Source of the DNA: Prorocentrum cordatum
Lineage: Eukaryota
Direction: 5' to 3'
DNA length: 64,000 nucleotides
Assembly (NCBI GenBank): GCA_963575745.1
Contig: CAUYUJ010000001.1
Coordinates: forward strand, 2,790,001-2,854,000
A program made the translations under genes and the position numbers. Below are positions 25,337-63,710 of this stretch, in pieces (position 1 is the stretch's first letter; each line of letters starts with the position of its first letter). Under the pieces are notes generated by a model. That model saw only the letters and a list, made by a program, of their open reading frames with translations. It did no database searches and was not told the origin of the DNA.

Positions 25337-25646
25337 ATACTAGTAGTAGTAGTAGTAGTAGTAGTAGGAGGAGTAGGAGGAGGAGGAGTCGTACTAGTAG
25401 TAGTCGTACTAGTAGCAGTACTGGTAGTATTACGGGTAAGGGAAGTAGTCCTGGTAGTATTCGTAGTAGTAGTAGTAGTAGTAGTAGTAGCAGTAGTAGT
25501 AGTAGTAGTAGTAATAGTAGTAGTAGTAGTAGAAGAAGAAGTAGTAGTAGCAGTAGTAGTAGTAGTAGTAGTCGTGCTAGTAGTAGTAGTAGTAGTGGTA
25601 GAAATAGTGTCAGCAGTCGTCGTCGTAGTACTAGTAGCAGTAGTAA

Positions 25647-25707
<61 letters not shown>

Positions 25708-25921
25708 CGTAGTAGTAATAGTAGTAGTAGTACGGAATCGTGGAATTAGTAAGTGTAGTGGTGGTAGTAGTCGTAAGAGCGAACGCAGTAGTGATGGAAG
25801 TAGCCGTAGTCGTAGTAGTAGTAGTAATAATAATAGTAGTAGTAGTAGTCGTCGTAGTTCTAATCGTAGTCGTAGTAGTAGTAGTAGTAGTAGTAGTCGT
25901 CGTAGTAGTGGTAGTTGTAGC

Positions 25922-25956
<35 letters not shown>

Positions 25957-25973
25957 CAGTACTAGTAGTAGTC

Positions 25974-26010
<37 letters not shown>

Positions 26011-26036
26011 TAGTAGTAGTAGTCATGGTAGTAGTG

Positions 26037-26073
<37 letters not shown>

Positions 26074-26107
26074 TACTAGTAGTAGTAGTAGTAATGATAG
26101 CCGAAGG

Positions 26108-26139
<32 letters not shown>

Positions 26140-26195
26140 TAGTAGTAGTAGTAGTCGTAGTAGTAGTAGTCGTAGTAGTAATAGTAGTGGTAGTG

Positions 26196-26241
<46 letters not shown>

Positions 26242-26297
26242 TAGTCGTAGTAGTTGTAATAGTAGTAGTCAGAGTAATACTGATAGTAGTAGTAGTT

Positions 26298-26337
<40 letters not shown>

Positions 26338-26394
26338 TAGTAATCGTCGTCGTAATAATACAAGTAGTAGCAGTAGTGTTATTATTATTTGGAC

Positions 26395-26433
<39 letters not shown>

Positions 26434-26573
26434 AAGTGGTCGTAGTACTAGTCGTAGTAGTAGTCATTGTAGTAGTGGTAGTCCTAGTCGCAGTAGTAGT
26501 AACAATAGTAGCAGAAGTAGCAGTAGTAGTAATAGGAATACGGCTGATAGTAGTAGTGCTAGTAGTAGTAGTA

Positions 26574-26614
<41 letters not shown>

Positions 26615-26824
26615 CGTAATAGTAGTAGCAGTAGTAGTAGTAGTAGTAGTAGCAGTACTAACACAAGAAGTAGTAATAGAAATAGTAGTAGTAGTAGTAG
26701 TGACTTGCCTGATTTTAGTAAGAGGTAAAAAATCGTAATCGTAATAGTAGTAGTAGTCGTACTACTGGTGGCACGAATCGTAATATGAATAATACTACTA
26801 GTAGTCGCACTCGTAGTCGTAGTG

Positions 26825-26855
<31 letters not shown>

Positions 26856-26933
26856 TGGTAGTAGTAGTAGAAGTAGTAGTAGTAGCAGTAGTAGTAGTAT
26901 TATTATTATTATTAGTAGTCGTAGTAGTAGTAT

Positions 26934-26990
<57 letters not shown>

Positions 26991-27004
26991 AAGTAGTAGA
27001 AGTA

Positions 27005-27055
<51 letters not shown>

Positions 27056-27195
27056 CTCGTAATCGTAAAAATTATATGGGCACTTCTATTAATAGCAGTA
27101 GTAGTAGTATTAGTGGTAATAGTAGTAGTAGTGGTAGTAGTAGTAATAGTAGTAGTAGTAGTAGTCGTTGTTGTTGAAGTCGTTTTAGTAGAAGT

Positions 27196-27260
<65 letters not shown>

Positions 27261-27978
27261 CAGTAGCATTAGTAATCGTAAATTAAAAGCAATAGTAATA
27301 GTAATAGTAATAGCAATAATGATAGCAGTAGTTGAAGTAGTCGTGGTCGTAGTAGTAGTCGCAGTAGTAGTAACAATAATGGTTGTAGTCGTAGTAGTAG
27401 TAATCGTAGTCAGCATAGTGGAAATACATCCAGTAGTTCTGATAGTAGTAATAAGGCTGGTGACATCAAAAAATGAGTTGTAGTTGCAGCAATTAAAAGA
27501 GAAGAAATAGTGGTAGTAATAGTCGTAGTAGTTGTTGTAGTCGTAGTGGTGGTGGTAGTTGTAGTCGTAGTAGTAGTAGGTCGCATTAGTCATCGTAGTC
27601 ATGGTAGAAGTCGTAGTAGTGGTAGTAATTGTACAGATAATACGAATAGTAATAGTAGTCGTAGTCGTAGAAGTAACAGTGGCACTAGCAATACTTGTAG
27701 TAGTGCTATCCGTAAAGGAAGAAGTAGTGATAGCAGTGGTAGTAGTAGTAACCGAAGTCGTATTAATAGTATGAATATTGATAGCCAGCGCCGTAGTATA
27801 TCATAAAAATCGCAGTCGTCGTGGTCGTAGTAATAGTACTAGTTGTGTAGTAGCAATAATAGTTATAGTCGTCGCAGTAGCCGTAGTAATAATTAAAAAA
27901 GTTGGCATAGTAGTAGCAACGCAAGTCGTCATCGTCATCGTCGCGATAGTAGTCGTAGATGTAGAAATAGTAGGAGTA

Positions 27979-30417: not shown

Positions 30418-30779
30418 CTCTACTCCCCGGCTTATGGTCGGTACTTTGGCTGGGCCTTCAGTGTGGTCGCATGGGAGCATTATTTGGATTCTGTGCATAT
30501 GACACTTCCCATATAGCAGGAGTCTGCGTAACATACATTTATAATATAGTCGGTTTCCATTAACATGTGTTTCCAATACTTTGGGCTTCCACTACATTGA
30601 GTTTCGGATCTATGGGGTTTCCAACACATTTGGCTTCATTATGCTTGTACGTATCTTTGTCATCAGTTGGTCCCCCCTATATCGGATTGCCAACGCAGGT
30701 GCGAACCCAAACCCAAACCTGAATCGCACAATACATCGATCAAGTGCGACCCTATAAGATATAATGATACTATGAATAC

Positions 30780-31266
30780 AAATAGTTGTAGTCGCAGTAC
30801 TGCTAGTAGTAGTAGTAGTAGTCGTAGTCGTAGTCGTATTAGACATAATAGTAGTAGTGGTTGTAGCAGTAAACATATAGCCGTAGTTCCAGTAGGTAGG
30901 TAGATGGTAGTCGTAGTATCAGTAGAAGTAATGATTATGGTAGCAATAGTAATACATATATCAGTAGTAGCACTCGTAAAGGTACGTGTAATAATGACAG
31001 TCGCGATCGCAGTAGTAGTCGTAATAGTTGTAGTAGTAGCAATGAAAATAGTAGTAGTTATACTAATAATAGCGGTAATACTAGTAGTAGTAATCGTGGT
31101 GTTGGTAGTCGTTGTAAAAGTAAAACTAGTAGTCGTAGTAGTAGTCGCCGTCGTCGTAGTAGTAGTAGTAGTAGTAGTAATAGTAGTAGTAGAGGTAGTA
31201 GTCGTCGTAGTCGTAGTCGGAGTCGGAGTCGTAGTCGTAGTCGTCGTCGTAGTAGTAGTCGTAGTG

Positions 31267-31317
<51 letters not shown>

Positions 31318-31475
31318 ATAGTAGTAGTAGTAGTGGTAGTAGTAGTAGTAGTAGCAGTAGTAGTAGGAGTAGGAGTGTTTGTGGCAGTAGTAGTAGAAGT
31401 AGTAGAAGTAGTAGAAGTAGTAGTAATAATAATAGTAGTAGTAGTAGTAGTAAGGACAATAATACTACTAGCAGA
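30780..31475. repeat. (TAG)n microsatellite, second block
   Basis: Directly visible. Confidence 0.95.
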
Positions 31476-33779
31476 CATACTAAACATGCGGATGAAATAG
31501 TTCCCCCCCTGGGCTCAGCGGCGGCAGCGGCCAGGGGAGGAAGTGCCGGTAGCGCCGATGGCGGAGCCGCGCCCTCCCGGGCAGCCAGGGCCACCGCGCG
31601 CGCAGGCGGCGACCGCTGCGCCAGCTGCGCAGGACCCGCGAGGGGAAGCGGCGCAGCACGAGTCTGGCGAGTTACGCCGCTGAGTCTAACCAGACTTCCA
31701 GCCAGCCGAAGTTCGACGTGCGGGCAATACTTTGCCTCGGTCCGCTCGCTTGGGACGTCGCGCCCCCTGCGCCATTTCGACTGCCTTGCGCTTGCCGAGA
31801 GTCGCATGGCCAGTGAGAGACGGGCTCATTGGGCTGTCCAGGCGAAGAACGCTCATCTTTCAGATCAGGTCATAATCCAGCTCGGCCTCGAGCAGACTGC
31901 GCGAGCGCAAGGGCTAACGAGGGGGGGGCGTTGTTCCAGATGGCGGCTGCGTCCGCTCGCGGGGGCCTCCAGGCGCCTGAGGTGGAGGGTCCAGCGACTG
32001 CCAACCGCTCTGCGCCACTGCCTACCAAGCTTTTGACGGTGTACTCCCAGACGCTCCACATCAAGGGGCCATCGACTGTTCTCATCGTATTATGCTGCAT
32101 TGCGTTTTTAGGCTTCAAGGCTGAGCATGCTCAGAGACTGATTCGTCCTGGCATATGTTGATCTCTGTTGCAACCCCCCATTATGCCATGAGAGGTAACT
32201 GCAACATGCCCCCCCCTCGGAGGTCCCGCAAAAAGTGTTTATCGAACGGGCGCAAGGCTTGCGTTCCAATCGCAAATGGAGCACGCTTGCGTCGCAGGGT
32301 CTGGCCAATCCCACGCAGAATGCATCTTGGTTCTCAAGTCGGCAGCACCTTCCGCGTGTCTTGTTGCGGCGGTGCTGGAGGCCCCCTGGGCGCGCATTGC
32401 GGCGTCAACGTTTCGCTGCTCAGCGATGGGGCGTTAGCTCATCACCAGAGCCCAAAGTCCCCCCCCCCCCAGGCCCCCAGGCCCAGCGCGCAGCCTAATC
32501 CCTCTAGCAAATCCCGAGTTGCGAAGCGCCAGAGGCGAGGGGCCCGACATGCGTTTCCCAACAAATTTCGGGATGCGCGCGCGACGCTTTTAAGGTGGAC
32601 CTCGTGGGGGCCTCCGAGGACAGCCCCAGCCGGGGCTCTGGATTCCCGACTTGCACCGGGAAGCGATGTGCGGGATCCCTTTGATTATGGGCGTCCCGAC
32701 GGCCCCCCAGAAGTGGAGGGCCCGGGGGCCAGCCAGTCCGAAGTTGCTCTCAAGGCTTCTGGGCATGCCCAGGTGCGTGTCTCTTCGGAAAATGCCCGCC
32801 GAGATTCCGCATAAGAGCTCTGTAGAGCCTGGGGATCTGGGCAACTCTGTGCGCGCAAGCCCCCCCGCCCCTCGCCGCCGCCAACATCCCCGAGCACGCT
32901 TGGTTGGGCCGAGAGTCGGAAGCAAGTCGGGCGCATCGAGCATGCGTCGGAGAATGTCTGGCCAGCGGTTGCGAAGTCCATCGCAGCCTGGATTTGGGGG
33001 GCGAACACATCTCGGCAATGAGTGGCACGCGCGCGGCGCGGGACAAAGCAGCAGGGCGCGCCGCTCTCACGCATCGCGGTGATATTAGTGCACGCAGGTC
33101 TCGAGGTGAAGGTCCTGGGATTGTCGCGAGGATGTCCAGCGTTCTGAGGGCATTGGATCAGAGACTCTCGCTGATGTTATAGCCGACTGGGGCCGAGAAT
33201 TAACGCCATTATTTCGCGGCTGAATCGGCTCAGAGCTCGAGGCAACGGTCGCATGCCGGTGCAGCATTTGTGCCCAGTTGCAATTGCTCTTGTCAGTCAT
33301 ATTCCCGATGGGGCCCACTGCGTTGCCCCCACCGCTCGTGGGACATCCGATTTGGGCTCTTTGGATTCATCGCACGGGGTTTCTGGAGGGCGTGGAAATT
33401 GTCACTCTGGGGTGTATTCGAGATTTCGCTGAGAATAGCAGCTGAACGTTCGCACGGTCGAGCTGTTCGCGGCTCCCTCAAGCGCCTGCAAGACTGGATG
33501 GTCGGGGAAAGCTCCCTGGGGGCCCATCTTCAAATCGTTGCGGGAGGTGTCCCGGGCTGCCGATGAGCGCGTTCGCCAATGGGTTCAGCGCTTTCACCAG
33601 ACGGGCATCTTTGACGCCAAAGTGGGGAATTGGCAGCATCCGTGGTCGTCGCAGACCCTCGACTCTCACGTCGCTGAGTCGCACCTAGGCACGATCTGGG
33701 CAGCAGCTGAATCTGATAGGCCCCCCCCCCCGCGCAAGTTCCTGACACCTGGGCAGACTCAAACAGACAAACGTGGCAA

Positions 33780-41489: not shown

Positions 41490-43396
41490 TCCCCTCCTTC
41501 CTTCCCTCCATTCACCCCTCCTCCTCCTCCTCATCCTCCTCCTCCTCCTCCTCCGCCTCCTCCTCCTCCTCCTCCTCCTCCTTCTGCTCCTCTTCCTCCT
41601 GCTCCTGCTCCTCCTAATCCCCCTCCTCCTCCTCCTCCTCGTCCTCCTCACCTACTTATTTCCCTCCATCCATCTCTCCTCCTCCTCCTCCTCCTTCTCC
41701 TCCTCATTATCCTCCTCCTCATCCTCCTCCACCTCCTCCTGGTCCTCTTATGATTCGTCTTCTTCTTCCTCCTCCTCCTCCTCGTCCTCCTCTTCTCCCT
41801 CCTGCTCCTCCTCCTCGTCCTGCTCCTGCTTTGACTCCTCTCTCCTGCCTCCTCCTCCTCCTCCTCCTCCTCCTCCTCCTCCTCCTCTTCCTCTTCCCCC
41901 TCCTCCTCCACTCCCTCCACTCCCTCCACTCCTCCTCCTCCTTCCTCCTTTTCCGTCCTCCTCCTCCTCCTTCTCCCCTCCTCCTCCTCCTCCTCCTCCT
42001 CCTCCTCCTCCTCCTCCTCTCCTCCTCTCCTCCTCCTCCTCCTCCCCTCCTTCCTTCCCTCCATCCACCCTTCCTCCTCCACCTCCTCCTCCTCCTGCTC
42101 CTCCTTCGCCTCCTTCCTCCTTTTCCTTATCCTCCTCCTCCTCCTCCTCCTGCTCCTCCCCCTCGTGCTCATGGCCCTCTTCTTCTTAGTATTCGTATTA
42201 TGATGATTCCTCTTCCTCCTCTTCCTCCTCCTCCTCCTCATCCTCCTCCTCTGTTTCTTCCTCCTCCTCCTCCCTTCCCTCGGCCTCCTCCTCCTCCTGC
42301 TGCTCCTCCCCCCCTCTGGTCCTCTTCGTCTTCTTCTTCTTCGGTATCCCATTCTTATTCGTCTTCCTGCTCCCTACTCCTCCTCTCCTCCTCCGCCTCT
42401 TCTCCCTCCCCTCCTCCTCCTCCTCCTCCTCCTCCCCCTCCTCCTCCTCCTCCTCTCCTCCTCCTCCTCAGCCTCCGCTTGCTCTGCTCCTTGCTCTTTC
42501 TCCTCTCATCATCTTCCTCCCCTCCTCCTCATCCTTCCTCCTCCTCCTGCTCTCCTGTTCAGCTGTTTCCTTCCTCTCCTCCTTCCTCCTTTTCCGATCT
42601 CCTCCTCCTCCTCCCCTCCCGCCGTTTCTCCTCCTCATCCTGCTTCCTGCTCCTGTCCTGCTCTTCTCCTCCTCCTCCTCCCTCCTGTTTCCTCTATCCG
42701 CACTTCTCTCCTCCTCCTCCTCCCCTCCTCCTCCTCCTCCTCCGCGTCCTCCTCGTCCTCATCGTCCTCCTCGTCTCCTCGTCTTCCTCATCCTCACTTC
42801 CTCCTCCTCCTATCCTCCTCCTCCTCCTCCTCCTCTCCTACTCCTCCCCTCCTACTACTCCTCCTCCTCTCTCCTCGTCCTCGTCATCCTCCTCCTCCCC
42901 TCCTCCTCATCCTCCTCCTCCTCCTCTCCTTCCTCCTCCTCCTCCTCCTCTCGTCCTCGTCCCGCGTCCTCGTTCCTCGTTCTCCTCCTCCTCCTCTCCT
43001 CCTCCTCCTCCTCCTACTCCTCCTCCTCCTCCTCTCCTCCTCCTCCTCCTCCTCCTCCTCCTCCTCCTCCTCCTCCTCCCCTCCTCCCCTCCTTTTCCCC
43101 CCTATCCACCCTTCCTCCTCCACCTCTCCTCCTCCTCCTCCTCCTCCTCCTCCTCCTCCTGCTCATCTCCTTTCCTCCTCCTTCTCCTTCCTCCTGCCTT
43201 CTCCTCCTCATCCTCCTGCTCCTGCCCTCTTGTCTTAGTATTCGTCTTATTATGTTTCCTCCTCCGCTTCTCTCGTCCTCCTCTCCTCCTCCTCCTGCTC
43301 CTCCTCCTCCTCCACATCCTCCTCCTTCTCCCCCTGTTCCTGCTCCTATGATTCCTTCTCCTGCTCCACCTCCTCCTCCTCCTCCTCATCATCATT

Positions 43397-43430
<34 letters not shown>

Positions 43431-43950
43431 GCAGCAGCATCATCATCATCAGCAGCATCATCATCATCCTCGTTTTCCTCATCAGCTCCTTCCTTCCACC
43501 CACCCTTTCTCCTCCTTTTCCTGTTCCTCCTCTTCCTCCTCCTCCTCCCCTCCTCCTCCTCTTGTTCCTCCTCCTCCTTCTCCTTCCTCCTTTCCTCCTC
43601 CTGCTCAGACCCCCTCCGTTCTTCCCTCCATCCACCCTTCCTCCTGCTCCTCCTCCTCCTCCTCCTCCTCCTCCTCCTCCTCCTCCTCCTCCTCATGCTA
43701 TTCTTCCCCTCTCTCCACCGTTCTTCCTCCTCCTCCTCCTCCTCCTCCTCCGCCTGCCCCTCGTCCTCGGTCCTTCGTCCTCTCCTCCTCCTCCTCCTCC
43801 TCCCTCCGCCTCCCCCGGCTTCCTCCTCCTCCTCCTCCCCCTCCCCCTCCCTCCTCCTCCTACCTCCCTCCTGCTCTCTCCCCCCCCCCCCCCAACCCCC
43901 CCCCCCCCCCCCCCCCCCAACCCTCCATTCTCCTTCCTTCCCTCCCTCCA
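41490..43950. repeat. About 2.4-kb polypyrimidine (CCT)n-derived tract with a (CAT)n island
   Basis: Directly visible. Confidence 0.97.
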
Positions 43951-44549
43951 TCCCAAAAACGCCCCGGGGCAACCGAGTAGGTCCCCACCCCCGTCACCAA
44001 GGCGGAACCCCAGGCGTTGGGGTTATGGCTCCAGGTCCCTAACCACAAAAAACGCCACCTACCAGACACAGCCTTTAATAGGATTTGCCGCGTGGCTTCC
44101 CGCCTCTGGGTGTAAGTTCTATTTATTCGCCAAAAAATATGTAAGGAGGAAAACCAGCAGAAGGAGGGACGGCCCAGCAGGGACGGCCAGGGAGGGAAAG
44201 GAAGATGAAGCTGGGGCGTCGGGCAGGGGGCGGTCGTGGTGGTCGTCCTGGTGGTCGTTGAAATCGGCGTGGTGGTAGTAATCGTAATCGTCGGAATGGT
44301 GGTGGTTGCCGGTGCTGTGGTAGTTGTGGTGGTTGCCGTGGTGCGATCGGGCTGGTGATGGTCGTGGTCGTCGCACTGTCGGTGGTTGTGGTGGTTGTCG
44401 TGCCAGTGCTGGTCGTGGACGTGGTACTCGTGGTCGCGGTGGCCGTCGTGCTGGTGATGGTCGTCGTCGGGGCGCGAATGGAGGCGGCAGTGGTTGTCGT
44501 GTTGGTGGCTGCTGTAATAGGACCCTTACCGTCCCAAGGCGCTGTGAAT

Positions 44550-49935: not shown

Positions 49936-50397
49936 GGGGGCCACCACGGGCGGCGCGACACGCTGAACACGAGGTCCCGACCGTGCCGTCCCCGGGCTTC
50001 AGAGCGCCCCAGGCGGCTCGAGGGGCGGCCTCCGCGGCCCCGAGGGGGACAGCGTGCCCCCAGGAAGACACCCGAGACGCGCGGGCTCCCCGGGGAGGGG
50101 AATCCCAACCCGTGGGCCCAGGAGCTCCCGGAGATAAGGTGTTACTGCGGCCCGTTGGTTGTTACTGCGGCCCGGTGGGTGTTAGTATGGCCAGGGGTCC
50201 TCCGGAGCTTATTAATTATCGAGTACGGTGAAGGGGGGGGAGGGGGTCCAAAAAGGCTCCGCCCCCCCCTTTCTCCTAAGAGCCTCTCGGAAGAGCCTCT
50301 GGTGCTCTTCGAAGAGCTTCATGGAGCCGCCGAAGACCTTCTTGCAGCCGCCTAAGAGCCTCTTGGGCTCTCCGAAAAGCCTCTTGGACTCTCAGAG

Positions 50398-52142
<1,745 letters not shown>

Positions 52143-52162
52143 TCTTCTTCTTTTTCTCGTCG

Positions 52163-52852
52163 TCCCTAGCGCCCTAGGGCTAGCACTCCCTAGCGCCAGT
52201 ACTTCCTAGGGCTAGCACTCCCTAGCGCCAGTACTTCCTTGCACCCCCTCGGACTAACACTCCCTAGGACTAGTATTCGCTAGGGTTGGTACTCCGTCGT
52301 GCGAGTACTCCCTAGGACGAATACTCCCTTGGACGAGTACGCCCTAGGGGTAATAATTCCTGGGGCTGGTACTCCCTGGGGATAGCACTCCCTGCGGCTA
52401 GTACTCCGTAGGACTAGTACTCCGTATGAATGATATTACCTAACACCAACACTACAGCACCATAGTACTACCACACTACAGCACCACTACCACAATACCA
52501 GTACCACAACACCACAACACTGCTACCACAGCACCACAACACCGCTACCACAATACCACAACCACAACACCACAACACCGCTACCAAAAAGACCACTACC
52601 ACAGCGCCACTGCCACTACGACAACACTACTACCGACTAACAACTCAGCAACACTACCAACACCACACCACTAACACAACACTACCAACACCACACCACT
52701 AACACAGCACACCACTACCAACACCACACCATTAACACAGCATACAGCACAACCCGCCACTACCAACACCGCACCACTAACGCAACACTACCAACACCAC
52801 ACCACTAACACAGCACAGCGACCACCACACCACTAACACAGCACTACTACCA
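52163..52852. repeat. About 19-bp CCTAGGGCTAGCACTCC-type repeats followed by C/A-only repeats (CACCACACTAACACAG-like)
   Basis: Periodic units are directly visible. Confidence 0.8.
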
Positions 52853-53801
52853 CGTTGGTTCCAGATGGGAGTTACTGTGGCCACTTTTGCCTGCGCGGGA
52901 GTGCATTCCCTTGAGGGTTGCGAATCTTTCCAGATCTAACATGAGATAGCTTTACATATTAATTTTCATTGAGCGGCCTGCGCGGGCCACAGTAACTCCC
53001 ATCCCGCCGCGCGACGGGCCACGCTAACACCCAACGGGCCGCACTAACACCCAACGGGCCACAGTAACAACCGGTCGCGGAGCCCCCGCCCCCCCCCCCC
53101 CCTCCCGATAGCCCCAGAGAACACCATGAGGCCCCCAGGACCCCCGAGGGATCTCCAGAGGCTGCCAAGAGGCCCCTCAAGAGAGCCCAAAAGGCCGCTG
53201 GCAAGACCCGTGCATGGTGGCAAAGAGTGGCCAGATGCCTTTATCCGCCGCCCCCTGCTGATTCATAACAGGGGTGCCCGGCGTGCTGAATCCGTTCGCT
53301 TTTGGTGTTGGTTCGTTTTCCAAAAGAACCCTCCCTGGGGCTCCGGCCCAGCCCGCCGGGGTCCCGGAATGGCCCGGAAAGGCCGGTTCCAAAAGGTTTT
53401 CCTGCCCCAGATGGCTCCCAGATGGCTTCCAAGATGGCCAAGATGGCCTCCAAGCTCGCCCAAGATGGTCCAAGATGGCCTCCAAGACGGCCCAATAAGA
53501 TGCCTCCAACTCCGCCCAAGAAACTTCCGAGACGGCCCAAGAGGTGCCCAAGAGGCCTCCAAGACGGCCCAAGAGGCCTCCGAGAGGTCCTCCAGGAGGG
53601 CCCGAAGAGGCTAACATCACTGATCTTCCTTTTATTTTCAAAAGTTTTCCGCATTTGCTTCTGTTCGGCCTTCCGGCGACCCAACACGGCCCAAGAGGCC
53701 CCCAAGATCGCCCCCAGAGCGCTCAAGAGGCCTCCAATATGGCCTCAGGACTGCCCAAGAGAGAGGCCCCAAGACGGCCCCAAGAAGGCACAAAGATGAC
53801 C

Positions 53802-53988
53802 TGTCACAGGGTCGGGGGCCTATCGCGACACGAGGGATGTGAGAGGGGCGGGAGGAGCTCTCTTTCAGTACGCCGCATGAGTCTCCGGGGACTCGCACCC
53901 TAAGCCTAAGCGGCTATAAGACAGTGAGGACATAGAGGGAGAGCGAGAGGGAGCGAAGAGAGACCCCCCCAGGGGCCAAACGGGGACA
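53802..53988 (-). repeat. 3' LTR (187 bp)
   Basis: TGTCACAGGG...CGGGGACA on the plus strand. It differs from the other LTR by 5 substitutions and one C-run indel. Confidence 0.95.
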
Positions 53989-54339
53989 GCGGACCCAACT
54001 TTCGCGGCTGAAACTGTCTCTTCAAAACGAGGACCCCCCACCACAGCAATGAAGGCCCCCGCCTCCTCCACGATGAAGGCGGGCGGCCGCCTTGACGCCG
54101 CCAACGGCGAACCTGCGGCGGCGGGGCCTGACGGCCTTCCCTGCGGCGGGGGCGTCTCCTCCTCCTCCTCCTCCTCCGCCTCCTCTTCCTCCTCCTTCTC
54201 CTCCTCACCTCTTCTCCTCGTCTTAGATCTCCTCTCCTTCTCACCGTCTCTCCTCTCCACCTCTGAGCCTCTTCCTTTACCTTCCTCCGCGCTTCGCTTC
54301 TCCTGAGCAACGGGCCGGGCCTTCTCTTCCTCCTCCTCT

Positions 54340-56200
54340 TCCTCCTCTCTTCTCTGGGCCTGCTCGGAAAAGGCCTTTCGGGGGGCGCCGCGAGAGCGGC
54401 TCTTGAGGGGCAAATTGAGCGACCGCTCATCCAAGCGCCCCCCTTCGTCGATCAGGCAGAGGGTCCCGCGGCGCAACAGATCGCGAAGGGCGAGATTCCC
54501 ACGAGCCGGATCCGCATGGGTGAGCGGGTCCGCCAGCATCCCCAGATGGGGAAGCCAGCGAACTTGAGAGCCCACGCTCGCGAGGGCATCTCTCACCAAC
54601 GCCAGCTCAATGGCATTCCTACGGTCCGCCCGGGACCCCGCGGGCCCCCGGGCCAACGTGTCGAACGCTGACTTGGCGTCCGCGATAGAGAGCGAGGACG
54701 CCTTTTCTCCCAGCTCGCACGACTTCGCCAACATCACCGAAAAGGGGGAAGGAAGCACCGAGGTCCCAGTCGGGGCGGGGAACGTCGGCAAAGACCGCGT
54801 CCCTCCACACTACCTGGAGCCATTGGGCTTCCGCCACCGCACTGGACAGGGCGAGCGCCCAGCTGCCACAGTGGAGCTGATGGCGCGCTTCAACCTTTGG
54901 GAACGCAACGAAACCCTTGAGCGCTGGTTGGATCGTATTGCGGCATCTGCTGCCATCACCAGCCAGGCCCCCTGGGCGCCCCCTCTGCTGGCGGACCCTG
55001 GACCGCCGGCGTCCGAAGCCGCGACGTACGTCAGGGACAGGGGGTCGAGAGCCCAAATAGTAAGCTTCTGGCCGGCCGTGGCTTTCAGAAACTTGCACAC
55101 CTTCACCAGGGTGATCGCGTGAGCAACCGTGGGGTTGGGCATCGCGCTCGCCAGAATCGAGGCTCCTCCGGCGACGTCGGGACGAGACTCACGAGCTACC
55201 CACTGCACTTGAGCGATGACCGCTCGATAGGAGGCCATCTCTGACGGGGACAGCAAAGACTCTGGGCACGCCCGACGCGAGCGCTCGAGGGGAAAAACCG
55301 TCAGCTGCTCACGAATGTACTTTTCTTGGTCGACGGTAATTCTGTCCTTGTACTGACGCAGATGGCGCCCGGCGTAATCGGCCTCGCCGGTCTGCCATTT
55401 GCCAAACTTGAAACGGGCGGTGGCATGCTGCTTAAACGAGTCCTGGAAAGACGGAGTCCCCGGCACGATGAGATCATCCACCTCGATGACGACAATACCC
55501 TCCGGGGCACCAGTGCGGCTCCTTTTCAGCCACAGGCACGGCTCCAGAAGCGAGCGAACGAAACCCTCGGACGCGAGCCAGTCAGTCAGCGTCCGATGCC
55601 ACAGCAACGGGACATCATTGAGCCCATATACGGGCGCAACCAGCTCGATCAGTCGGTCCGGGCCGACTGGCAGCCCTGCGCACGGCTCCACGAAAATGGA
55701 CCCCCGGGGACGCTCCAACTTTCGGCTTTGACAGAACGCGTTCTTGGCGTCCGCCACCGACAGGGACCATCCCATGGAACGCACGATTTGGAGGGCCAGA
55801 AGGACGCTCTCAGACTGGGGGGTCGGACTGTAAACCTCGAGCGTTTCACTGTCCGGGTCCTGATGTCCGTGCACACACCGCCTTGACTTGGGGGTGGGAA
55901 GGGGCCCCACCACCTCGACGGGCTTCAGCCTGCGCACCATTCTGGAAGAAAGGATGCGGTCCGGGTGGCGACGGCGGGCCAAACGAAACTCTTCTGCTGA
56001 TAGTACTCTCACGGCCCCTGTGGCCAACATCGCTTCCCATTCCTTAGCGTCAGCGGCCGCGAAGCGGATCCGATCTTCTGGCGATAGCTCCTTCAGGCGG
56101 ACCTCCGCCCCTCCGGGATTCACCTTCTTCCCTTGGCCCGCCGAAGCCGAAAAAGCAAAACTGCCCTCGGCATCGAGGTCGTCTATGAAGAACGAAGCAA
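54340..56200 (-). pseudogene. Copia reverse transcriptase and RNase H, frameshifted near 54860
   Basis: RT motifs: KSRRCVHGHQDPD, YSPT, ADAKNAFCQS, VYGLND.PLLW, IEVDDLIV, YAGRHL. RNase H motifs: ASDAG, LKRAISSTVAA, DAKSAFD, RRNAIELA, LADPLT. Confidence 0.92.
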
Positions 56201-57049
56201 AATCGGGAGCCTCCGATCGGGCGGGCCACTCACGCAGCTCTTCGGCCAAAATCTTATCCTGATCCGAGTCCCAGGATGACCAGAGGTCCTCACTTCCGCT
56301 GGCTCCCACGCCTTCGCCGGCCTCGGTGCTTTCACCGTCATCCCTGGACTTGGCCTCGGCCAACCAGACCGGGGTGTTCACCTCCGGGGATCTGCTTCGG
56401 GCTCGGGGTTCCTCTCGATCGGAAACGGGGGCTGAGGCGGACCGACTGGGCGCTCTCGCCCGGGGCGCGGAAATATCGCGGCCGGAGCCGAGGCGACGAG
56501 CCGCAGCGGCCATGGGCACATCAGCTGCGACGTATCTTCCCAGATCCGGAGGCGGGCGAACGGGCGCCGCTCTGTCCAGGGCCTGACGTAGGCTCTCCGG
56601 AAGTTCGCCGAACGGGGGCGCCGAGGCTGACTCGGCGGGGGCGGCTGAACCAGCCGCGGGCGAGGCCTGCTCGAACTGGTGGGCCTCTCGCTCCTGAATC
56701 CTCTTTCGGACCGAAGGCGCGGGGCCGAGCTCCTCAATCGGAGTCAGCTTCAGCTGCTTCGATCGGGAAGACCTGGGCCCCAGGGCCCCGCTGGCGGGCC
56801 TGGACTCAGGCCTCGACTCGCCCTCCGAGGGCGCCGGGGAAAGGACCGGGGGACCCGCCGAAACGGACTCGTCTGGAGCGAGGGGGCCCGCCTGAGCAGA
56901 CGGGACCCTGGTGTCCTCGGACGCCTGCCGCGAGGGGCGGGCCAGGGCGGTAGAGGTCTGCGGGACCTCGGGAAGTAGCGGCGTCCGGGACATCGAAAGC
57001 CTCAGGGGGAGAGGGCCCCTCGGCCGCCACGTCGACGGCGCCGCTTCTC

Positions 57050-58200
57050 TTCCCGGGGTTCCGCACTTCCTCGCGCAGTTTGTCAAAGGCCGTGCTCTCT
57101 AGCAGCTCGGCACCGAGTGATTCCGATCGGGTCGCGGGGCGAACCTGTTCCGCCGTGCATTTGAGAAGCCTGGATCGCATGGCCACCCACACTGTCCCGC
57201 CCCTGCTGCCTCCTGAGCCGCCCGCCTGGTATATCACCACGCCTGGGCCAGTCCAGCGATCGCGCTGCAAAGAGTGCGACCGGTTCGCGGTCGTGATGCG
57301 TCTATATACATACACCCAGTCGCCCGGGCGGAACTCGCGGTCAGAATGGAGGCGGGCCTCGGCGGCCTCCGACAGCCTGGACTTGACATCCAGTGACGCG
57401 AGAGCTCGCCGGGCCTCCTCGCGGATACGATGCTGCCTCGCAAAAGCCCCCGCGGCTGAATCAAGATCGATAGACATCTGGGCCACGTCTTCAGATCCGA
57501 TAAGGTCAAGGGGATCGTCGGACAGGAGCGAGCGGGGCGTGCGAGGATTCTGTCCGAAGACCAGCTGGGACGGAGAATACCCCCCGCGATGGAAGCCACG
57601 GTTCTTCGCGGCTACAACCTCGCACAACAGCAGGTCGGTCTCTTCGGCCGACGTCGGGCTCACGGCGAGGGCAGCTTTGGACAGCGCATCCTCGACGATT
57701 CCGCCGTGACGCTCGCACTTGCCATTCTGATGAGGGGGGTTGGCCGGGATAACGTGGTGCAGAATGCCGATGTGCTCGCATCCCCGAGCAAGCGCCCCCT
57801 CGAACTCCCCACCACCGTCGCTCATCAACATCTCAGGGGCCCCGAAAGGCCTCGACCACCAGCGAGAGAACGCAGCCCAGACCGTCTTGGCGGCATCGTC
57901 TGAGAGTAGACAGCACTGTTGGAAGGAGGTCCCGTGATCAATCACGTTGAGAACGGGCGTGGCTTTGCCTAAGACGTCCACATAAAATCCACGGCGATCA
58001 TCTTATTGAAGGCATACGTGTGGGGAAGGTGGGCTTTCCTCCTCCAACTGGCCCTCGAGTGGGAAGAGCATTGATCACACTTGAAACAATCCCGCGCCCA
58101 AGTCAAAACTTCGGGGCGCGCGCCTGCCACACGAAGGGCTCGCAAGAAGTCCTCATCGCGAGGATGGCCGAGGTTCACGCGAAGTCTAGCGACTTCCCTC
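57050..58200 (-). pseudogene. Copia integrase (zinc finger + DDE), frameshifted near 57980
   Basis: RLRVNLGHP...CDQC (first His replaced by Arg), IAVD, VLNVIDHGTSFQ, MSDGGGEF, HQNGKCERHGG, GGYSPSQLVFG and RWTGPGVV. Confidence 0.92.
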
Positions 58201-58379
58201 TGGAGCTCCCCGGAGAGCCCCCCGCTTTTGGTCCCCGGGGCCGGGAACTGGGGACTGGGATGTTCCCCCTGAGACTCAGCCCCGGAGGGCTCGGGATCCC
58301 GCTCTTCGACGGGAAAATGCCAATCGGCCCCCTCTGAGTCGGGCTCCTCGGAGCCTTGCTCTCGCCGGTGGAAGACCCA

Positions 58380-59015
58380 CGCGGAGTCTTCAACTCCGGT
58401 CGCCAGGCTCATCACTAGCTCCCTCGGGAACTTCTCCGCTGCGCTGGTCCTGGCGCGGCCGACGAGGTGAACGCGTGAGTGATCACCGGAGCAGCGGCGT
58501 CGGCAGTGAGCAAGCAGGGGAGGAGAGTTAGACATGATCGACATCGGCTTCTTGGAGAGCCCCTCTCCGTCGACCGACAGTCCGTGCATGCACTGATCCA
58601 GGGTCTCGCGGCTCACTCCCGGAAGTCCAAGGATGTGACGAGTGGACTCGAGCTTCCACGAGCTCGCCGACGCCGGGTGCTCCAGAGCAAAGAAGCGCCC
58701 CCTCGAAATCTGAAACTAGGCTATCTTCATGCACAGCTGGAAGGCCGCCAGACCCCTCTCCTCCTCCCGAATCTCAAGGACAGGGTCCATCCGCCCCCAG
58801 TTGGAGGCACGCGGGGCGGAAAAGGCCTTACACATGGGCGTCATTAGCACGTGGGGGGGGGCATCCTCCTCGAGCCGTTGCCAAAGGCGGGCCTCGCCTT
58901 CCGGGGTGAGGAGGTCGGTTCCAGTCAAGATATCGAGCGCGGGGGAAACCTTAAAGCCGCGACGCTCAAGCTCGGCCGAGACCTTGGCCGGACTGAACAG
59001 CTCCAGGACGACCGT
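58380..59015 (-). pseudogene. C5 cytosine-DNA-methyltransferase-like domain in the polyprotein, with a premature TAG at 58716-58718
   Basis: VLELFS (motif I-like), LDILTGTDL (II/III), LMTPMCKAFS (IV, PPC-like), FALEHP (VI), LDQCMHG...KKP (VIII) and FPRELV (X-like). All lie in the polyprotein frame on both sides of the stop. Confidence 0.7.
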
Positions 59016-62000
59016 ACCCCCACGAGCCTGCTCCTTTTCCTTAGCGATCTTACGACGGGCCCGGCGGCCCCTCCTGAGGCCGAGACCGTCTAGGGCGCGC
59101 GCGGTAGCGTCGCGTGCCTTCCGGGGGGCGGACGGGGGCGCGGGAGCGATCTCGATTAGGCCGTCTAGGGCCGCCGCAGCGAAGCGGTCCTCCTCCACCA
59201 CCTGCACCTCTTTACCTTCCCTCCTGCCTTCCCTCTTTTCGCACCAGAAGGTGACTAGCAGCTCGTCGGGCGAAGAGGCACTTACTGCATCCGAAATCTC
59301 ACGCGAGCCTGAGGCGGCCCAGAGTCCTGAGAAGATAGGGACCCCGCGAGGGCCCTTAATGTCAATCCATCGGGGGTTCGAGGGGAGTAAACAAGAGGGG
59401 GGCTGGCCACCGCTCGCCCCGATCGCGAGCGCAGTGAAAATTTCTCGGCGCTCCTTATAGGGAAGAGCCCTCAGGGCCCACCCCTCGCGCTGGCAAAGCT
59501 CCGGGCCCGAAAGGAGCCTGTCGTTTTCTTCATCCCAGAGCCCGAGGATTCTCCAGGAAGTTTTTCGAAAATATTCCTCCCCCCTGGATCGGTTCAGAAC
59601 TACCCCGAGATCCTTGACGAACAGGCCCCTCGGAGACGTCGAGCTGGCTCCTAGCTTCCTTAACTGGATCCGCTTCGGATCCTCCTCGATTCCTAGATCG
59701 CATACTCGACGAAACGATCCTAGTCCTGGCTGCCGCCCGCTCCGAGCGCCGCCGTCAACATCTGGACTACCCTCTGCATGTCCTGCTCCGACATCACCGG
59801 GCGCGACGCCATCTGGACGAGGGCCGTCTCCATGCGGTCGCCCTGCTCCTGGACCATGGTGTGGATGCTGGTGAACGTCCTCTCGTTCTGCATGCGCTGG
59901 GATTCGATCGCGGTGTTCATGTCCGCCAGCGCTTGCTGCATCTCGAGCGCCGTCATCGGGCGCGTCGGCGCCGCCGTCTTGCCTGCCTCGGGCCTCGGCT
60001 CTGGAACCCTCCCGGTGCGAGGGTCTGCCTTGGCCGGCGGCGGTGGCCTCACGGGGACATACCCTTCTTCCGCTTTGACCATCAGCATCGGGCGATCGAA
60101 GCTCGCCTTCGGGAGGGACTGAGAGGCCGCCGCCGCGCGAGCAGCCGGGGCTGGCGGCTGCGGCTTCGGATGCAGCCACGGGTCGCCTTGGTCGAAGAGG
60201 GCCACCTCCTGCTTTGACTGAGCTTTCATCTCCTTGATGGCCTCCCTGGTCTTCTTCCTCTCGAGCTTGGCCCTCTCGTTCTCGTGCCGGCGCTGGGCCC
60301 TGAGAAGCTTCTCCTCCTCCGAGAAAGGCTGATGCCACACGCGATCGCCGCGCGTCATGCACTTGCCGAAGGTCCCGTGCTGGTTCTCGGAGTCCCAGCG
60401 GGCGTGGAGCGGGCGGGGGCAGTCGTCCGGGTCGACCTTCTCGGACGGGTTGAGGAGGTTCGGCATCTTGAAGGCCACCAGCATCGCGTGCGCGAACGTC
60501 GTCATGTGCCAGAAGATGCGGATGACCAGCCTGCGCCAGTGATGCACCTTCGCCGGGAGCAACTGACGGCCCGCGTAGAAGTTCTGCTCCTCCTGCTCCG
60601 TTATCGCCTCGAGCTCGAGCGTCGCCTCCAGCGCCGGGTCCAGCATGGGCAGCTCCTCCCAGCCCTCCGACGCGCCCATCAGCGTGTCGTACTCCGGCGG
60701 GGCGCCCGACCAGAGCACCTCCTTCGAAGCCTCGCGCATCCCTCCGAGGTCGAGCGCGACCCTCTTGAGGGCCGGCTCCTTCTTCACGCGCCTCGGCGCT
60801 GGCGACTTCGCCGCCAGCGTGCGTCCGCCGCGGCTCGAGGCTGCCTTCATCTCGGCTGGCGGCAGCTCCGACCTCGCTCTCTCTGAGGCTCGTTCGCGCT
60901 GGCTGAACCGAATCACTACGGTTGGGCCCGCTGTCTGATCCCCCTTGGCCCCCGAGAGAGACCCCCAAGGACTCGACAGGAGGCGAGGAGGAGGGGGAAC
61001 TGCAGGCGCAAGCGCAGCGCAGGCAGGCAGCAAAAGCGGCGGCCGAGCGGCGGTCCTTCAGGAAGCGGGCCCCAGGCATCTGCTCCTGGATCTCGGGCGA
61101 TACCTTGAGCGAGGCGGCCGGGCGCTGCGCCAGGTCGACCGAGCGGTGGCCGGACGGGTGCGTCGCCAGGGGCACCCTCACGCGACGGCGCAGCACGCCG
61201 TCGCTCACCACCAGCACATTGCCCGCGAGATCGATCGCGCTCTCGAGGCAGGCGAGCAGCTTGACCGGCAAAAGAGGGGGGCAGTTCTGCTCCAGGATGA
61301 GAAACTCCACGACCCCGTTCCCGCCGAGCGTCACCGGGACCCACGCCCGGCCGACGGGCGCCGTCTTCCCCCCGATCCCGGAGGCGCTGATGCCCGTCAC
61401 CGGCGTCCAGTCGTAGTGGATGCAGTAGCCGACCTCCTGCAGCGCCTGGGCGAGGATCTTGACCTCCCTCTTCCCGATCAGCGCCTGGGCCGCCGCCGTG
61501 TCCACCAGGGCGTGGGTGCCAAGGCTCTTGATCGACGCGAAGCTCGAGGCGTCGGTCTCGCATGCCTTCAGCAGCTCGTTCACCTTGCTGCCCCAGTCCA
61601 TGTACGAGTAGGCGTCGCTGTCGGAGTTGGTGAAGAGCGTGGACGCCGAGAACTTGCCGTCCTTCTCCTTCGCCAGGCGGTCGGCCTTCGAAACGTAGGG
61701 ATTCTTGCAGTCACTAGCCCAGTGCCCTCGCTGTCCACAATTCGCACACCTCGCCCGTCGACGGATGTCACGTTCGCCTACGCGCTTGAATCCAGGACGG
61801 GCCGCCTTGCGCTTCGAGAAGAACTCTCGATCGGTCTTCTTGGCGGCCTTCAGCTTCCTGAACTCGGTCCACGAGCGTCGCTTTTCCTTGCCAAACTTCT
61901 CTTCGATCACTGCGGCGAAAACTTGTATGGCCTCCTCCTCATCAAGCTGCTGCTCCTCGATCGCCGTGAGAAACGCCTCAGCCTCCTCCTCCGGCAGCTC

Positions 62001-62855
62001 GATCTCGTCGTCGTCGTCATCCTCATACGGCTCGGGCGGGTCGGGCACGTACTCCTGCACGAAGGCCTTCACCGCCGGCAGCGACTGCGATGCGGGTTGC
62101 ACTCTCTGCTCGGCCACGTCCATCTGCAGCAGCGCCGCACGGATCGAGGCCGCGTCCTTCTTGCCCTGGGCCAACGTGCGCAGGTTCACCTTTTTCTGCG
62201 CACTGAGGTTGGCTCCTTCCTCAAGGTATCTAGCTTTCACTTTATCTGGTAAAGGAAGTCCGTGAACTTCAGCATCTGACAGCTGCTGGTCACGGCGCAG
62301 CACGTAGTCGGTGAGAGATTCCCCTCGCTTGATCATGTAGTCAAAGGGCGCGTGCGAGTGGGGCAGGCGTTCCCTGTCGCCAGGGCGTTCGCCGTTCAGG
62401 ATCGCCAAGTGCTCGAGCGCCTTCTGGACTCCGTCGGGCTGCATCAGCGAGGAGGCCAGCGGCTTGAACTTCCATTGCAGCTCTACCGGTAGCGATTCCA
62501 CCAGCCGAGGAGCCTGTGACTCCGGAAGGTGCCAGGTGCGTCTTGACCAGGCCGTCACGTTCAGGCGATAGAACTCGAGCTGCTCCATGCCCAGCCAGGT
62601 TGGCGGGGGGCCGAAGTCGCGCGAGCGGGGAGCTACTACCTCCCAACTCTCTGCAGAGTGCCAGTCAGAGTCTCGCCGCGCGCCGTCGTCTCGACCTCGC
62701 CACCACTCGTCACGAGCACCACGGCCGCCAGAGCCCCAGCCCCGGCGCCAGCCCTGCTCGCTCCAGCCGGTCTCCGACCAGTTGTCGTCCGCGTCGGGCC
62801 AGGCTGCTGGCTCTGCGTCGTCCTGGTCGTCTGTCTGGATCTCCGCGTCCGGCAT
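58716..62855 (-). CDS. Gag-protease N-terminal part of the Copia polyprotein (1379 aa up to the premature stop)
   Basis: PPPTW.G gag start, CANCGQRGHWASDC zinc knuckle (61707-61748) and ALVDTAA aspartic protease motif (~61500). Confidence 0.9.
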   Translation of the reverse strand: MPDAEIQTDDQDDAEPAAWPDADDNWSETGWSEQGWRRGWGSGGRGARDEWWRGRDDGARRDSDWHSAESWEVVAPRSRDFGPPPTWLGMEQLEFYRLNVTAWSRRTWHLPESQAPRLVESLPVELQWKFKPLASSLMQPDGVQKALEHLAILNGERPGDRERLPHSHAPFDYMIKRGESLTDYVLRRDQQLSDAEVHGLPLPDKVKARYLEEGANLSAQKKVNLRTLAQGKKDAASIRAALLQMDVAEQRVQPASQSLPAVKAFVQEYVPDPPEPYEDDDDDEIELPEEEAEAFLTAIEEQQLDEEEAIQVFAAVIEEKFGKEKRRSWTEFRKLKAAKKTDREFFSKRKAARPGFKRVGERDIRRRARCANCGQRGHWASDCKNPYVSKADRLAKEKDGKFSASTLFTNSDSDAYSYMDWGSKVNELLKACETDASSFASIKSLGTHALVDTAAAQALIGKREVKILAQALQEVGYCIHYDWTPVTGISASGIGGKTAPVGRAWVPVTLGGNGVVEFLILEQNCPPLLPVKLLACLESAIDLAGNVLVVSDGVLRRRVRVPLATHPSGHRSVDLAQRPAASLKVSPEIQEQMPGARFLKDRRSAAAFAACLRCACACSSPSSSPPVESLGVSLGGQGGSDSGPNRSDSVQPARTSLRESEVGAAASRDEGSLEPRRTHAGGEVASAEAREEGAGPQEGRARPRRDARGFEGGALVGRPAGVRHADGRVGGLGGAAHAGPGAGGDARARGDNGAGGAELLRGPSVAPGEGASLAQAGHPHLLAHDDVRARDAGGLQDAEPPQPVREGRPGRLPPPAPRPLGLREPARDLRQVHDARRSRVASAFLGGGEASQGPAPAREREGQAREEEDQGGHQGDESSVKAGGGPLRPRRPVAASEAAAASPGCSRGGGLSVPPEGELRSPDADGQSGRRVCPREATAAGQGRPSHREGSRAEARGRQDGGADAPDDGARDAASAGGHEHRDRIPAHAEREDVHQHPHHGPGAGRPHGDGPRPDGVAPGDVGAGHAEGSPDVDGGARSGRQPGLGSFRRVCDLGIEEDPKRIQLRKLGASSTSPRGLFVKDLGVVLNRSRGEEYFRKTSWRILGLWDEENDRLLSGPELCQREGWALRALPYKERREIFTALAIGASGGQPPSCLLPSNPRWIDIKGPRGVPIFSGLWAASGSREISDAVSASSPDELLVTFWCEKREGRREGKEVQVVEEDRFAAAALDGLIEIAPAPPSAPRKARDATARALDGLGLRRGRRARRKIAKEKEQARGGTVVLELFSPAKVSAELERRGFKVSPALDILTGTDLLTPEGEARLWQRLEEDAPPHVLMTPMCKAFSAPRASNWGRMDPVLEIREEERGLAAFQLCMKIA
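59720..60850 (-). CDS. 376-aa overlapping ORF in the +1 frame inside the Copia polyprotein, unknown function
   Basis: MKAASSRGG...SQD*. Codons are strongly G/C-ending and the protein has a normal composition, whereas the polyprotein frame over the same bases is R/G/A/P low-complexity. Confidence 0.8.
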   Translation of the reverse strand: MKAASSRGGRTLAAKSPAPRRVKKEPALKRVALDLGGMREASKEVLWSGAPPEYDTLMGASEGWEELPMLDPALEATLELEAITEQEEQNFYAGRQLLPAKVHHWRRLVIRIFWHMTTFAHAMLVAFKMPNLLNPSEKVDPDDCPRPLHARWDSENQHGTFGKCMTRGDRVWHQPFSEEEKLLRAQRRHENERAKLERKKTREAIKEMKAQSKQEVALFDQGDPWLHPKPQPPAPAARAAAASQSLPKASFDRPMLMVKAEEGYVPVRPPPPAKADPRTGRVPEPRPEAGKTAAPTRPMTALEMQQALADMNTAIESQRMQNERTFTSIHTMVQEQGDRMETALVQMASRPVMSEQDMQRVVQMLTAALGAGGSQD

Positions 62856-62957
62856 GGGCCGGTGCAGTGTCGGTCTGTGGGCGGTGGAGCCTCCTTCTCC
62901 TCAGTCGGTCGCCTGGCGGCTCCTCCCGTCCTCGTCGAACGCCACGCGGTCCACGAA

Positions 62958-62973
62958 CCAGCTCCCCTTACCA
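62958..62973 (-). promoter_or_regulatory. Primer-binding site TGGTAAGGGGAGCTGG
   Basis: Starts 1 nt after the CA end of the 5' LTR and begins with TGG, complementary to the tRNA CCA end. Confidence 0.8.
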
Positions 62974-62974
62974 C

Positions 62975-63160
62975 TGTCACAGGGTCGGGGGCCTATCGGG
63001 ACACGAGGGCTGTGAGAGGGACGGGAGGAGCTCTCTTTCAGTACGCCGTATGAGTCTCCGGGGACTCGCACCCTAAGCCTAAGCGGCTATAAGACAGTGA
63101 GGACATAGAGGGAGAGCGAGAGGGAGCGAAGAGAGACCCCCCAGGGGACAAACGGGGACA
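62975..63160 (-). repeat. 5' LTR (186 bp)
   Basis: Direct repeat of 53802-53988, followed on the plus strand by GACC. Confidence 0.95.
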
Positions 63161-63710
63161 GACCCAAGAGACCTCCAAGATGCCCAAGATGGCCTCTAAG
63201 ACGGCCCTGGAGCACCCCAGGAGGGCCCCAAGTCGGCCCAGGCAGGCCCCCAAGACGGCTTCCGACGGCGTCAGACGGGCCGGGAGCCCACCAAGATGGC
63301 AGGAAGGCCAGAGAAGGCTAAAATCATTGATTTCCCACGAGTTTTTGAAGGATTGTGGCATTTGTTTTTTGTTCAGCCTTCCGACGGCCCGAGAGGGCCC
63401 AAGAGCCCAAAAGATCGCCCAAGAGGTCTCCATTATGGCCCCAGCCCAAGACGGCCCCAAGAGGCCCCCAAGACGGCCAAGAGGCCTCCAAGACGGCCAA
63501 AATGGCCTCCAAGACGGCCATGGAGCACCCCGAGAGGGCCGCAAGACGGGCCAGAGAGGCCTCCAGACGGCTTCCGACTACGTCAAACGGGCCAGAAGCC
63601 CACCAAAACAACCAAAGATGACCCCCGCGAAGCCCACAAAGGTCCAAGAAGCTCCCAGGAAGCTCCCAAGAGGCCCCAAGAGTGTCCCCAGAGGCTCCCG
63701 AGATGCCCCT
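63161..63710 (+). repeat. GGCCCCAAGAG-family dispersed repeat; host of the LTR insertion, continuing 53120-53801
   Basis: The reconstructed empty site CAAAGATGACCCAAGAG fits the repeat unit pattern. Confidence 0.8.

Follow-up and report, generated by a model that had tools for sequence, protein, structure and literature searches.

The stretch of DNA analyzed here, 64,000 nucleotides of Prorocentrum cordatum (NCBI GenBank assembly GCA_963575745.1, contig CAUYUJ010000001.1, positions 2,790,001 to 2,854,000 of the forward strand) and hereafter called the window, carries on its minus strand a Ty1/Copia-type long terminal repeat (LTR) retrotransposon whose Gag-Pol polyprotein frame harbors a second, shifted open reading frame (ORF), which we name X. 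By its codon signature and its relatives, X is a genuine protein-coding gene that lies wholly inside the open polyprotein frame, and comparison with these relatives likewise marks its product as a conserved protein family.

The polyprotein frame is open on the minus strand from 58716 to 62900 (1394 codons from stop to stop), from Gag to the downstream Pol domain, and the frame that is +1 relative to Pol is open from 59720 to 61057 (445 codons from stop to stop). Between 59723 and 60850 neither the X frame nor the Pol frame contains a stop codon, and both are thus open throughout the overlap. An earlier reading of the same DNA, hereafter the sequence-only reading, had announced two frames open for more than 1.1 kb and a real protein in the +1 frame. 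Both statements are confirmed, the second by a periodicity in the G+C content of third codon positions (GC3) that is bounded by the ATG and the TAG of X, and by 13 relatives. The features concerned are the following.

59720-60850, minus strand: X coding sequence, 376 amino acids, +1 relative to Pol, ATG at 60850 and TAG at 59722-59720, recognized by GC3 and relatives
59720-60850, minus strand: Pol-frame reading over X, 377 codons, no stop, 59% Arg, Gly, Ala and Pro, 4 aromatic or Cys residues
60341-60424, minus strand: Cys/His motif of X (DCPRP...CMTRGDR), from alignment A1
60851-61040, minus strand: pyrimidine-rich spacer lacking codon periodicity in all frames, including CAG at 61000 and GAG at 60972; no ATG, Pol and X frames both open

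Codon signature and protein family of X

G or C occupies 340 of the 376 third positions of X. Through Gag and the protease, positional G+C follows the usual pattern in the Pol frame (position 3 = 0.71-0.98); between about 60850 and about 59720 this pattern shifts by one base into the X frame (X position 3 about 0.9-0.96), and then it shifts back. In windows of 150 bases the switch points coincide with ATG 60850 and TAG 59720, the signature is found in the X frame only, and the composition alters sharply exactly at the X TAG. Initiation at ATG 60850, as previously proposed, fits the onset of this periodicity as well as the position of the codon, which is the sole ATG between 61060 and 60840, and a Met is found at the corresponding point in three of five relatives. 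The protease region (61041-61700) has a third-position G+C of 0.9-0.98, like X, whereas that of Gag and of the downstream Pol domains is far lower (0.65-0.8); a common history of the protease and X, or a local bias affecting both, may be responsible.

A HMMER search of 1.84 billion representative proteins recovered 13 relatives of X, with E-values from 1.2e-36 to 1.1e-4, identities of 29-97% and lengths of 65-398 amino acids. All 13 are short free-standing proteins that match the window in the frame of X alone, and no resemblance to the Pol frame was seen in any of them. As no relative exceeds 398 amino acids, there is no in-frame fusion of X to Gag-protease or to Pol among these representatives. 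The three relatives that have a Met aligned with that of X are P0005, P0009 and P0012; of the two others that reach this point, P0008 is open at its 5′ end and P0011 extends further upstream. At the other end, the last codons of X align with residue 352 of 354 in P0009 and residue 295 of 306 in P0008. The 95-97% identical fragments P0003-P0005 bear the source name “Pyramimonas_sp.”, the only organism label that any search gave.

The N-terminus of X is basic, and the protein also has an acidic stretch, an amphipathic helix, long helices and a small motif of Cys and His residues. The motifs on which the sequence-only reading had relied are indeed present, WRRLVIRIFWHMTTFAHAMLVAF at 60538-60470 and DCPRP...CMTRGDR at 60424-60341. 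The conserved blocks of alignment A1 comprise an acidic stretch, then W-R-R with a hydrophobic helix, a Cys/His block (C-P-H-P ... N-x-H ... K-C-x-x-C), a basic helix, G-Y-V-P-x-K-P-P-P, and R-P-M-T-x-x-E-M ... I-E-x-Q-R. In the AlphaFold model, whose mean predicted local distance difference test (pLDDT) score is 58, X consists mostly of long helices with a disordered N-terminal half, the confident long helices being at 247-288, 370-417 and 424-439. Pfam yielded nothing above threshold with X, a profile search of the PDB gave E-values of 0.4 or worse, the ESM Atlas returned no usable match, and Foldseek found no match of the model in the PDB at E ≤0.001. X most likely acts as a zinc-binding, oligomerizing helper of the element, which is a guess.

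Other searches did not enlarge the family. No match was obtained with X in a word-indexed search of proteins of near lengths, and a protein search with alignment A1 returned just four already-known proteins. DNA of divergent X relatives was not found in viral contigs (queries X, P0009 and P0011), nor was DNA of X relatives found in metagenome contigs (query X) or genome contigs (queries X and P0009). The sole metagenome locus for P0013 (L001, 949-1101) lies on a bacterial contig whose ORFs are riboflavin-synthesis-like and NusB-like genes; the match is out of frame, and it was rejected as false.

The Pol frame across X

Across X, the Pol frame is compositionally forced filler: Arg, Gly, Ala and Pro account for 59% of it, versus 34% of the remainder of that frame, which agrees with its earlier description as R/G/A/P filler. 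It had also been cautioned that high GC3 in the +1 frame would by itself suppress stops in the Pol frame; this caveat explains much of the openness and falls short of the whole, since the openness exceeds what is expected from X codon usage (P about 0.02). When synonymous codons were permuted within X, with protein and codon usage kept, the shuffled sequences had on average 3.28 Pol-frame stops, versus 0 observed, and 2.05% of 20000 and 1.89% of 10000 of them were stop-free (P(0) = 0.0205 and 0.0189). When X was recoded with the codon usage of the other coding parts of the element, the mean rose to 9.1 Pol-frame stops and 0 of 20000 draws were stop-free.

The excess stop-freedom arises because the T-ending codons of X are few and rarely stand before a purine. 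The base after the 16 such codons is C in 12 cases, T in 2, G in 2 and A in none, while 224 of 375 X codons overall begin with a purine; of the 152 T-ending codons in control sequence (Gag, protease and two downstream stretches), 69 stand before a purine (one-sided Fisher test, P = 0.009). Alternative frames elsewhere in the element show no depletion of stops, with 16 versus 14.2 expected over Gag-protease and 12 versus 12.8 expected over the downstream domain. For the 252-base stretch upstream of the ATG (61102-60851, containing the spacer), P(0) for the Pol frame is 0.18. We conclude with moderate confidence that the openness of the Pol frame over X is largely, but not entirely, due to the GC3 of X.

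A single phase serves both the protease and the domain downstream. Over about 335 codons this downstream Pol part is free of stops and shows coding periodicity, but for about 290 codons it offers no ATG, so that it has to be entered from upstream. Possible signs of selection are of different kinds in the two frames: relatives and a codon signature in the X frame, and in the Pol frame only stop avoidance and purine avoidance after T-ending codons. Since it is the X frame that carries the ordinary codon signature, the Pol spacer looks like the derived reading, and it is probably the spacer that came to lie over X, not X that was overprinted on Pol. The view of X as a gene overprinted in Pol is thus retained as far as nesting in an open polyprotein frame is concerned, and probably needs to be reversed as far as its direction is concerned.

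Expression, origin and rival explanations

Compact viruses, hepadnaviruses and retroviruses among them, characteristically have same-strand genes nested in full within a replicase frame, and LTR retrotransposons are usually described as encoding gag-pol only, with extra ORFs placed outside pol. The explanation that we favor, which we would give about an even chance of being right, is drawn by analogy with the former: X would be an accessory gene nested in a polyprotein spacer, much as PreS is nested over the P spacer of hepadnaviruses. With a shift of one base, its whole length falls inside the polyprotein ORF, between the protease (PR) and the next Pol domain; ribosomes making Gag-PR-Pol would read straight through the X stretch as a flexible Gly/Ala/Arg/Pro spacer, and X would be initiated at its own AUG (60850) on a separate subgenomic RNA, probably a spliced one. 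In eukaryotes, an AUG that lies internally, 2 kb into an RNA, has to be supplied with a transcript of its own, which is why X would need a separate one. The candidate donor for such splicing is the following.

62964-62977, minus strand: candidate 5′ splice donor GTG/GTAAGG, the G of its GT being at 62971, three bases beyond the 5′ LTR

This candidate is strong. No other GTAAG donor occurs between 62973 and 60990, and the GTRAG sites of that interval number three, this one included. Candidate acceptors lie in the pyrimidine tract at 61000 and 60972, and their use would make 60850 the first AUG. Trans-splicing of a spliced leader (the dinoflagellate leader, DinoSL), which had been entertained as another source of such an RNA, found no support. 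The sequence GCTCAAG at about 61103 was considered for its likeness to the end of the dinoflagellate spliced leader and dropped, this 7-mer being located inside good protease-frame coding and no search result pointing to a dinoflagellate host. As to origin, extra DNA carrying X would have come between two Pol domains, and its second frame would have been kept open as a linker.

Drosophila copia has a spliced subgenomic RNA. The Copia element BARE has gag-pol as a single ORF and makes a subset of its products from a spliced subgenomic RNA (PMC3735527). The subgenomic RNAs of BARE and copia differ from the one proposed here in that they encode Gag in the same frame, with no second-frame gene. 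In hepadnaviruses, PreS/S is nested in P, with PreS over the spacer, and inserted DNA has been proposed as the source of both spacer and PreS in two frames (PMC5604429). The likeness lies in an ORF of about 1.1 kb, shifted by one base inside the replicase ORF of a reverse-transcribing element, part of which covers a flexible spacer between two enzyme domains. The differences are substantial: a virus with protein-primed replication is compared with an LTR retrotransposon, X has no similarity to envelope proteins and no clear membrane anchor, and the viral S also overlaps the reverse transcriptase domain, whereas X overlaps filler only. The likeness is accordingly put forward as an analogy of layout, not as membership. 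Small retroviral accessory genes, for example those of deltaretroviruses, also occupy alternative frames and arose by overprinting (PMC5604429). They are situated near the 3′ end or env, not in a protease-integrase linker, and it is the accessory frame that looks older in the present element.

Several observations weigh against a nested gene in an open spacer. The window holds 192 stop-to-stop ORFs of at least 150 codons, its G+C is 59-68% over most of its length and several other frames across the X stretch are also long; because long ORFs abound in this way, openness alone means little. The equivalent frame over the protease is also stop-free (open for 220-264 codons), though with P(0) = 0.15, and the antisense frame with the same G+C pattern has just 1 stop. 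The stop-avoidance probability of about 0.02 is modest and comes from one decayed copy. The ends of the relatives could be contig ends instead of true starts and stops, and the distant relatives may be host genes.

Moreover, the only copy of the element in the window is dead, its LTRs differing by 3.2% (96.8% identical). The downstream Pol domain is interrupted in frame by a TAG at 58716-58718; position 58718 is C instead of A in both of the run X1 contigs that cover it (among the contigs listed), which restores a sense codon, and the TAG is therefore private to this copy or lineage. A frame change occurs inside the integrase near 57990 and the phase is restored near 57000, before the reverse transcriptase: the zinc-finger and first-Asp part of the integrase is in Pol phase (57969-58715), the core and C-terminus (56806-58002) in another. 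Two indels in a decayed element, or else errors in the assembly, probably underlie these changes. The His and the last Cys of the Cys/His motif of X are both Arg in the window copy, which is consistent with a dead copy; P0004, a 95% identical fragment, keeps His and Cys at these points. Of four sequencing runs listed, two contain part of the stretch, and no RNA run is listed among those that do. Comparison with short DNA contigs of the public runs X1 and X2, in which the indel evidence comes from 12 of 28 rows, revealed one run X1 contig with small indels totaling +2 at 59622-59669, just past the X stop, which would break Pol continuity in the copy from which that contig derives. Conversely, the contig at 59533-60034 (12 differences, 2.4% divergent) spans the X stop without gaps, and the contig at 60494-60885 is also gap-free with respect to the window.

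Much of this would be accommodated if X were a passenger, captured by or hitch-hiking in a lineage that does not need a continuous polyprotein, being either non-autonomous or dead at arrival, with a Pol frame open only by virtue of the GC3 of X (90%). High GC3 alone removes most stops, the protease-equivalent and antisense frames are open or nearly so, the copy is decayed, the copy number looks low (summed contig depth 4-15 among the contigs listed), and the net +2 indel falls just after X. We nevertheless regard this explanation as unlikely, if by no means negligible: P(0) is 0.02 even given the codon usage of X itself, purines are avoided after its T-ending codons (P = 0.009), the protease and the ATG-less downstream domain are in phase, and the stretch upstream of the ATG is likewise open, albeit with P = 0.18. 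An intron of the kind described for Ogre elements would also dispense with an open Pol frame; here the X segment would be spliced from some transcripts so as to join Gag-PR and Pol, and unspliced RNA would give Gag-PR and carry X. The frame would survive splicing from phase-0 GT sites at 61208, 61181 and 61103 to a phase-0 AAG/ acceptor at 59613, but the pyrimidine tract at the candidate acceptor is weak (0.6) and the donors are not outstanding. The frame is moreover open beyond expectation where such an intron needs none, and we hold this account to be rather improbable. Ogre resembles the present element in having extra sequence directly after the protease that affects polyprotein production (PMC6317226); there, the segment stands between two ORFs and is not described as a gene for a conserved protein, whereas here the frame is continuous and the segment codes for a conserved protein in another frame.

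Two further possibilities concern the frame of X itself, and both appear highly improbable. Two compensating frameshifts or assembly errors could have displaced what is an in-frame polyprotein domain in intact copies, and the window copy does have such a pair around the integrase core (near 57990 and near 57000). The TAG of X, however, sits where its relatives also end and where the composition shifts sharply, relatives begin with Met at the Met of X and none exceeds 398 amino acids, and the contigs at 59533-60034, which spans the 3′ junction, and at 60494-60885 match without gaps. A programmed +1 ribosomal frameshift in the spacer, which the sequence-only reading had offered as an alternative source of the protein, would yield a Gag-PR-X fusion as a second polyprotein product. 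Programmed +1 frameshifting is known in Ty1, and 69 codons of open X frame, from 61057 on, precede the ATG of X. Upstream of 60850, though, there is no X-frame periodicity (61040-60851), Met starts are conserved among relatives, and no fused relative was found. A search of Rfam over 53700-63300 gave no match, including none to a known frameshift RNA element, slippery sites not having been scanned.

Beyond the favored account of a gene nested in the polyprotein spacer, we tentatively suggest, as a possibility that is more probably wrong than right, that X represents an old accessory-gene family of algal Copia-type elements, nested in +1 and expressed in a retrovirus-like manner from a spliced subgenomic RNA. 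If this were true, it would constitute an independent parallel, at the level of retrotransposons, to the hepadnavirus spacer/PreS pair, with the linker laid over a pre-existing gene. A full-text literature search retrieved no publication that describes a conserved gene inside the spacer of a Copia polyprotein, which is not proof of absence. Should relatives prove to keep both frames, the element would offer a tractable case for the origin of a spacer/gene pair and a new accessory protein family for Copia biology, and it would show that “filler” in a polyprotein may arise as a side effect of a gene that occupies another frame. There is also a warning for the annotation of GC-rich genomes: the long Gly/Ala/Arg/Pro stretch of the polyprotein predicted here does not represent a domain, the real gene being the one read in the other frame.

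The host element and its surroundings

The host of X is a Ty1/Copia-type LTR retrotransposon. Its stop-to-stop ORFs and Pfam matches give the order Gag, protease, long filler, further domain, integrase, reverse transcriptase, which is that of Copia, and the RVT_2 reverse transcriptase is preceded by integrase-like ORFs.

53801-63161, minus strand: whole LTR element, with paired direct LTRs
62974-63161, minus strand: 5′ LTR with TG...CA ends, 96.8% identity over 189 bases with 53801-53989
61041-62855, minus strand: Gag and protease in the Pol frame, first ATG at 62855, with zf-CCHC, GC3 of 0.71-0.98 and no stops
61748-61707, minus strand: zf-CCHC of Gag (Pfam E = 1.9e-5)
61508, minus strand: protease motif LVDTAAA, assigned from the D-T-A motif alone, with no Pfam family match
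57969-59719, minus strand: downstream Pol-frame coding, with the so-called DNA methyltransferase (DNMT)-like domain and the integrase N-terminus, from ORFs and codon periodicity
56806-58002, minus strand: integrase core and C-terminus in another phase, from sequence motifs, with no Pfam match above threshold
54810-57098, minus strand: reverse transcriptase/RNase H ORF, again in Pol phase (Pfam RVT_2, E = 4e-15)
53801-53989, minus strand: 3′ LTR, from repeat comparison and contig junctions

The four bases GGTC flank the element on both sides as a target-site duplication, and contigs from runs X1 and X2 join about 53758-53801 to about 63163-63176 with the element absent. Neither blastn nor tblastn detected a further copy within the window.

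The label of a methyltransferase-like domain, given by the sequence-only reading to the Pol-frame part downstream of X, was not confirmed. In Pfam, with E up to 0.1, no family matched it, whether the query was 57969-58715 or the frame of 1394 amino acids that bears this domain, and PDB sequences have no match to it at E up to 1. Its single-sequence fold (58353-59033) has a pLDDT of 35 and is unusable, and as a query among proteins of 766-2440 amino acids the downstream Pol domain found no match. The peptides TPMCKAFS and FFALEHP may resemble C5-methyltransferase motifs IV and VI (PCQ and ENV). A methyltransferase in a Copia element, if true, would itself be unusual. Retrotransposons with cytosine methyltransferases include SymbioLINE-Dnmt, SymbioDIRS-Dnmt3 and KnitGypsy-Dnmt3, and the Copia superfamily of Symbiodinium is stated to be without any DNMT domain (PMC5890265). 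The present element resembles these DNMT-bearing retrotransposons in having an extra domain inside Pol, and differs in that its domain matched nothing in Pfam or the PDB.

The element sits in a very-high-copy short repeat of type CCCAAGACGGCCCAAGAGG (53700-53800 and 63163-63300), for which the word depth in contigs of runs X1 and X2 reaches thousands to tens of thousands, versus 4-15 across the element. Sequence resembling this flanking repeat is also present at 7716-7823. Elsewhere in the window, low-GC and strongly skewed stretches at 24800-27300, 30600-32000 and 50200-52200 contain ORFs of extreme three-base periodicity (e.g., positional G+C of 0.12, 0.93 and 0.09), and they are probably arrays of trinucleotide-type repeats. 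At 42000-44000 the GC skew is -0.83.

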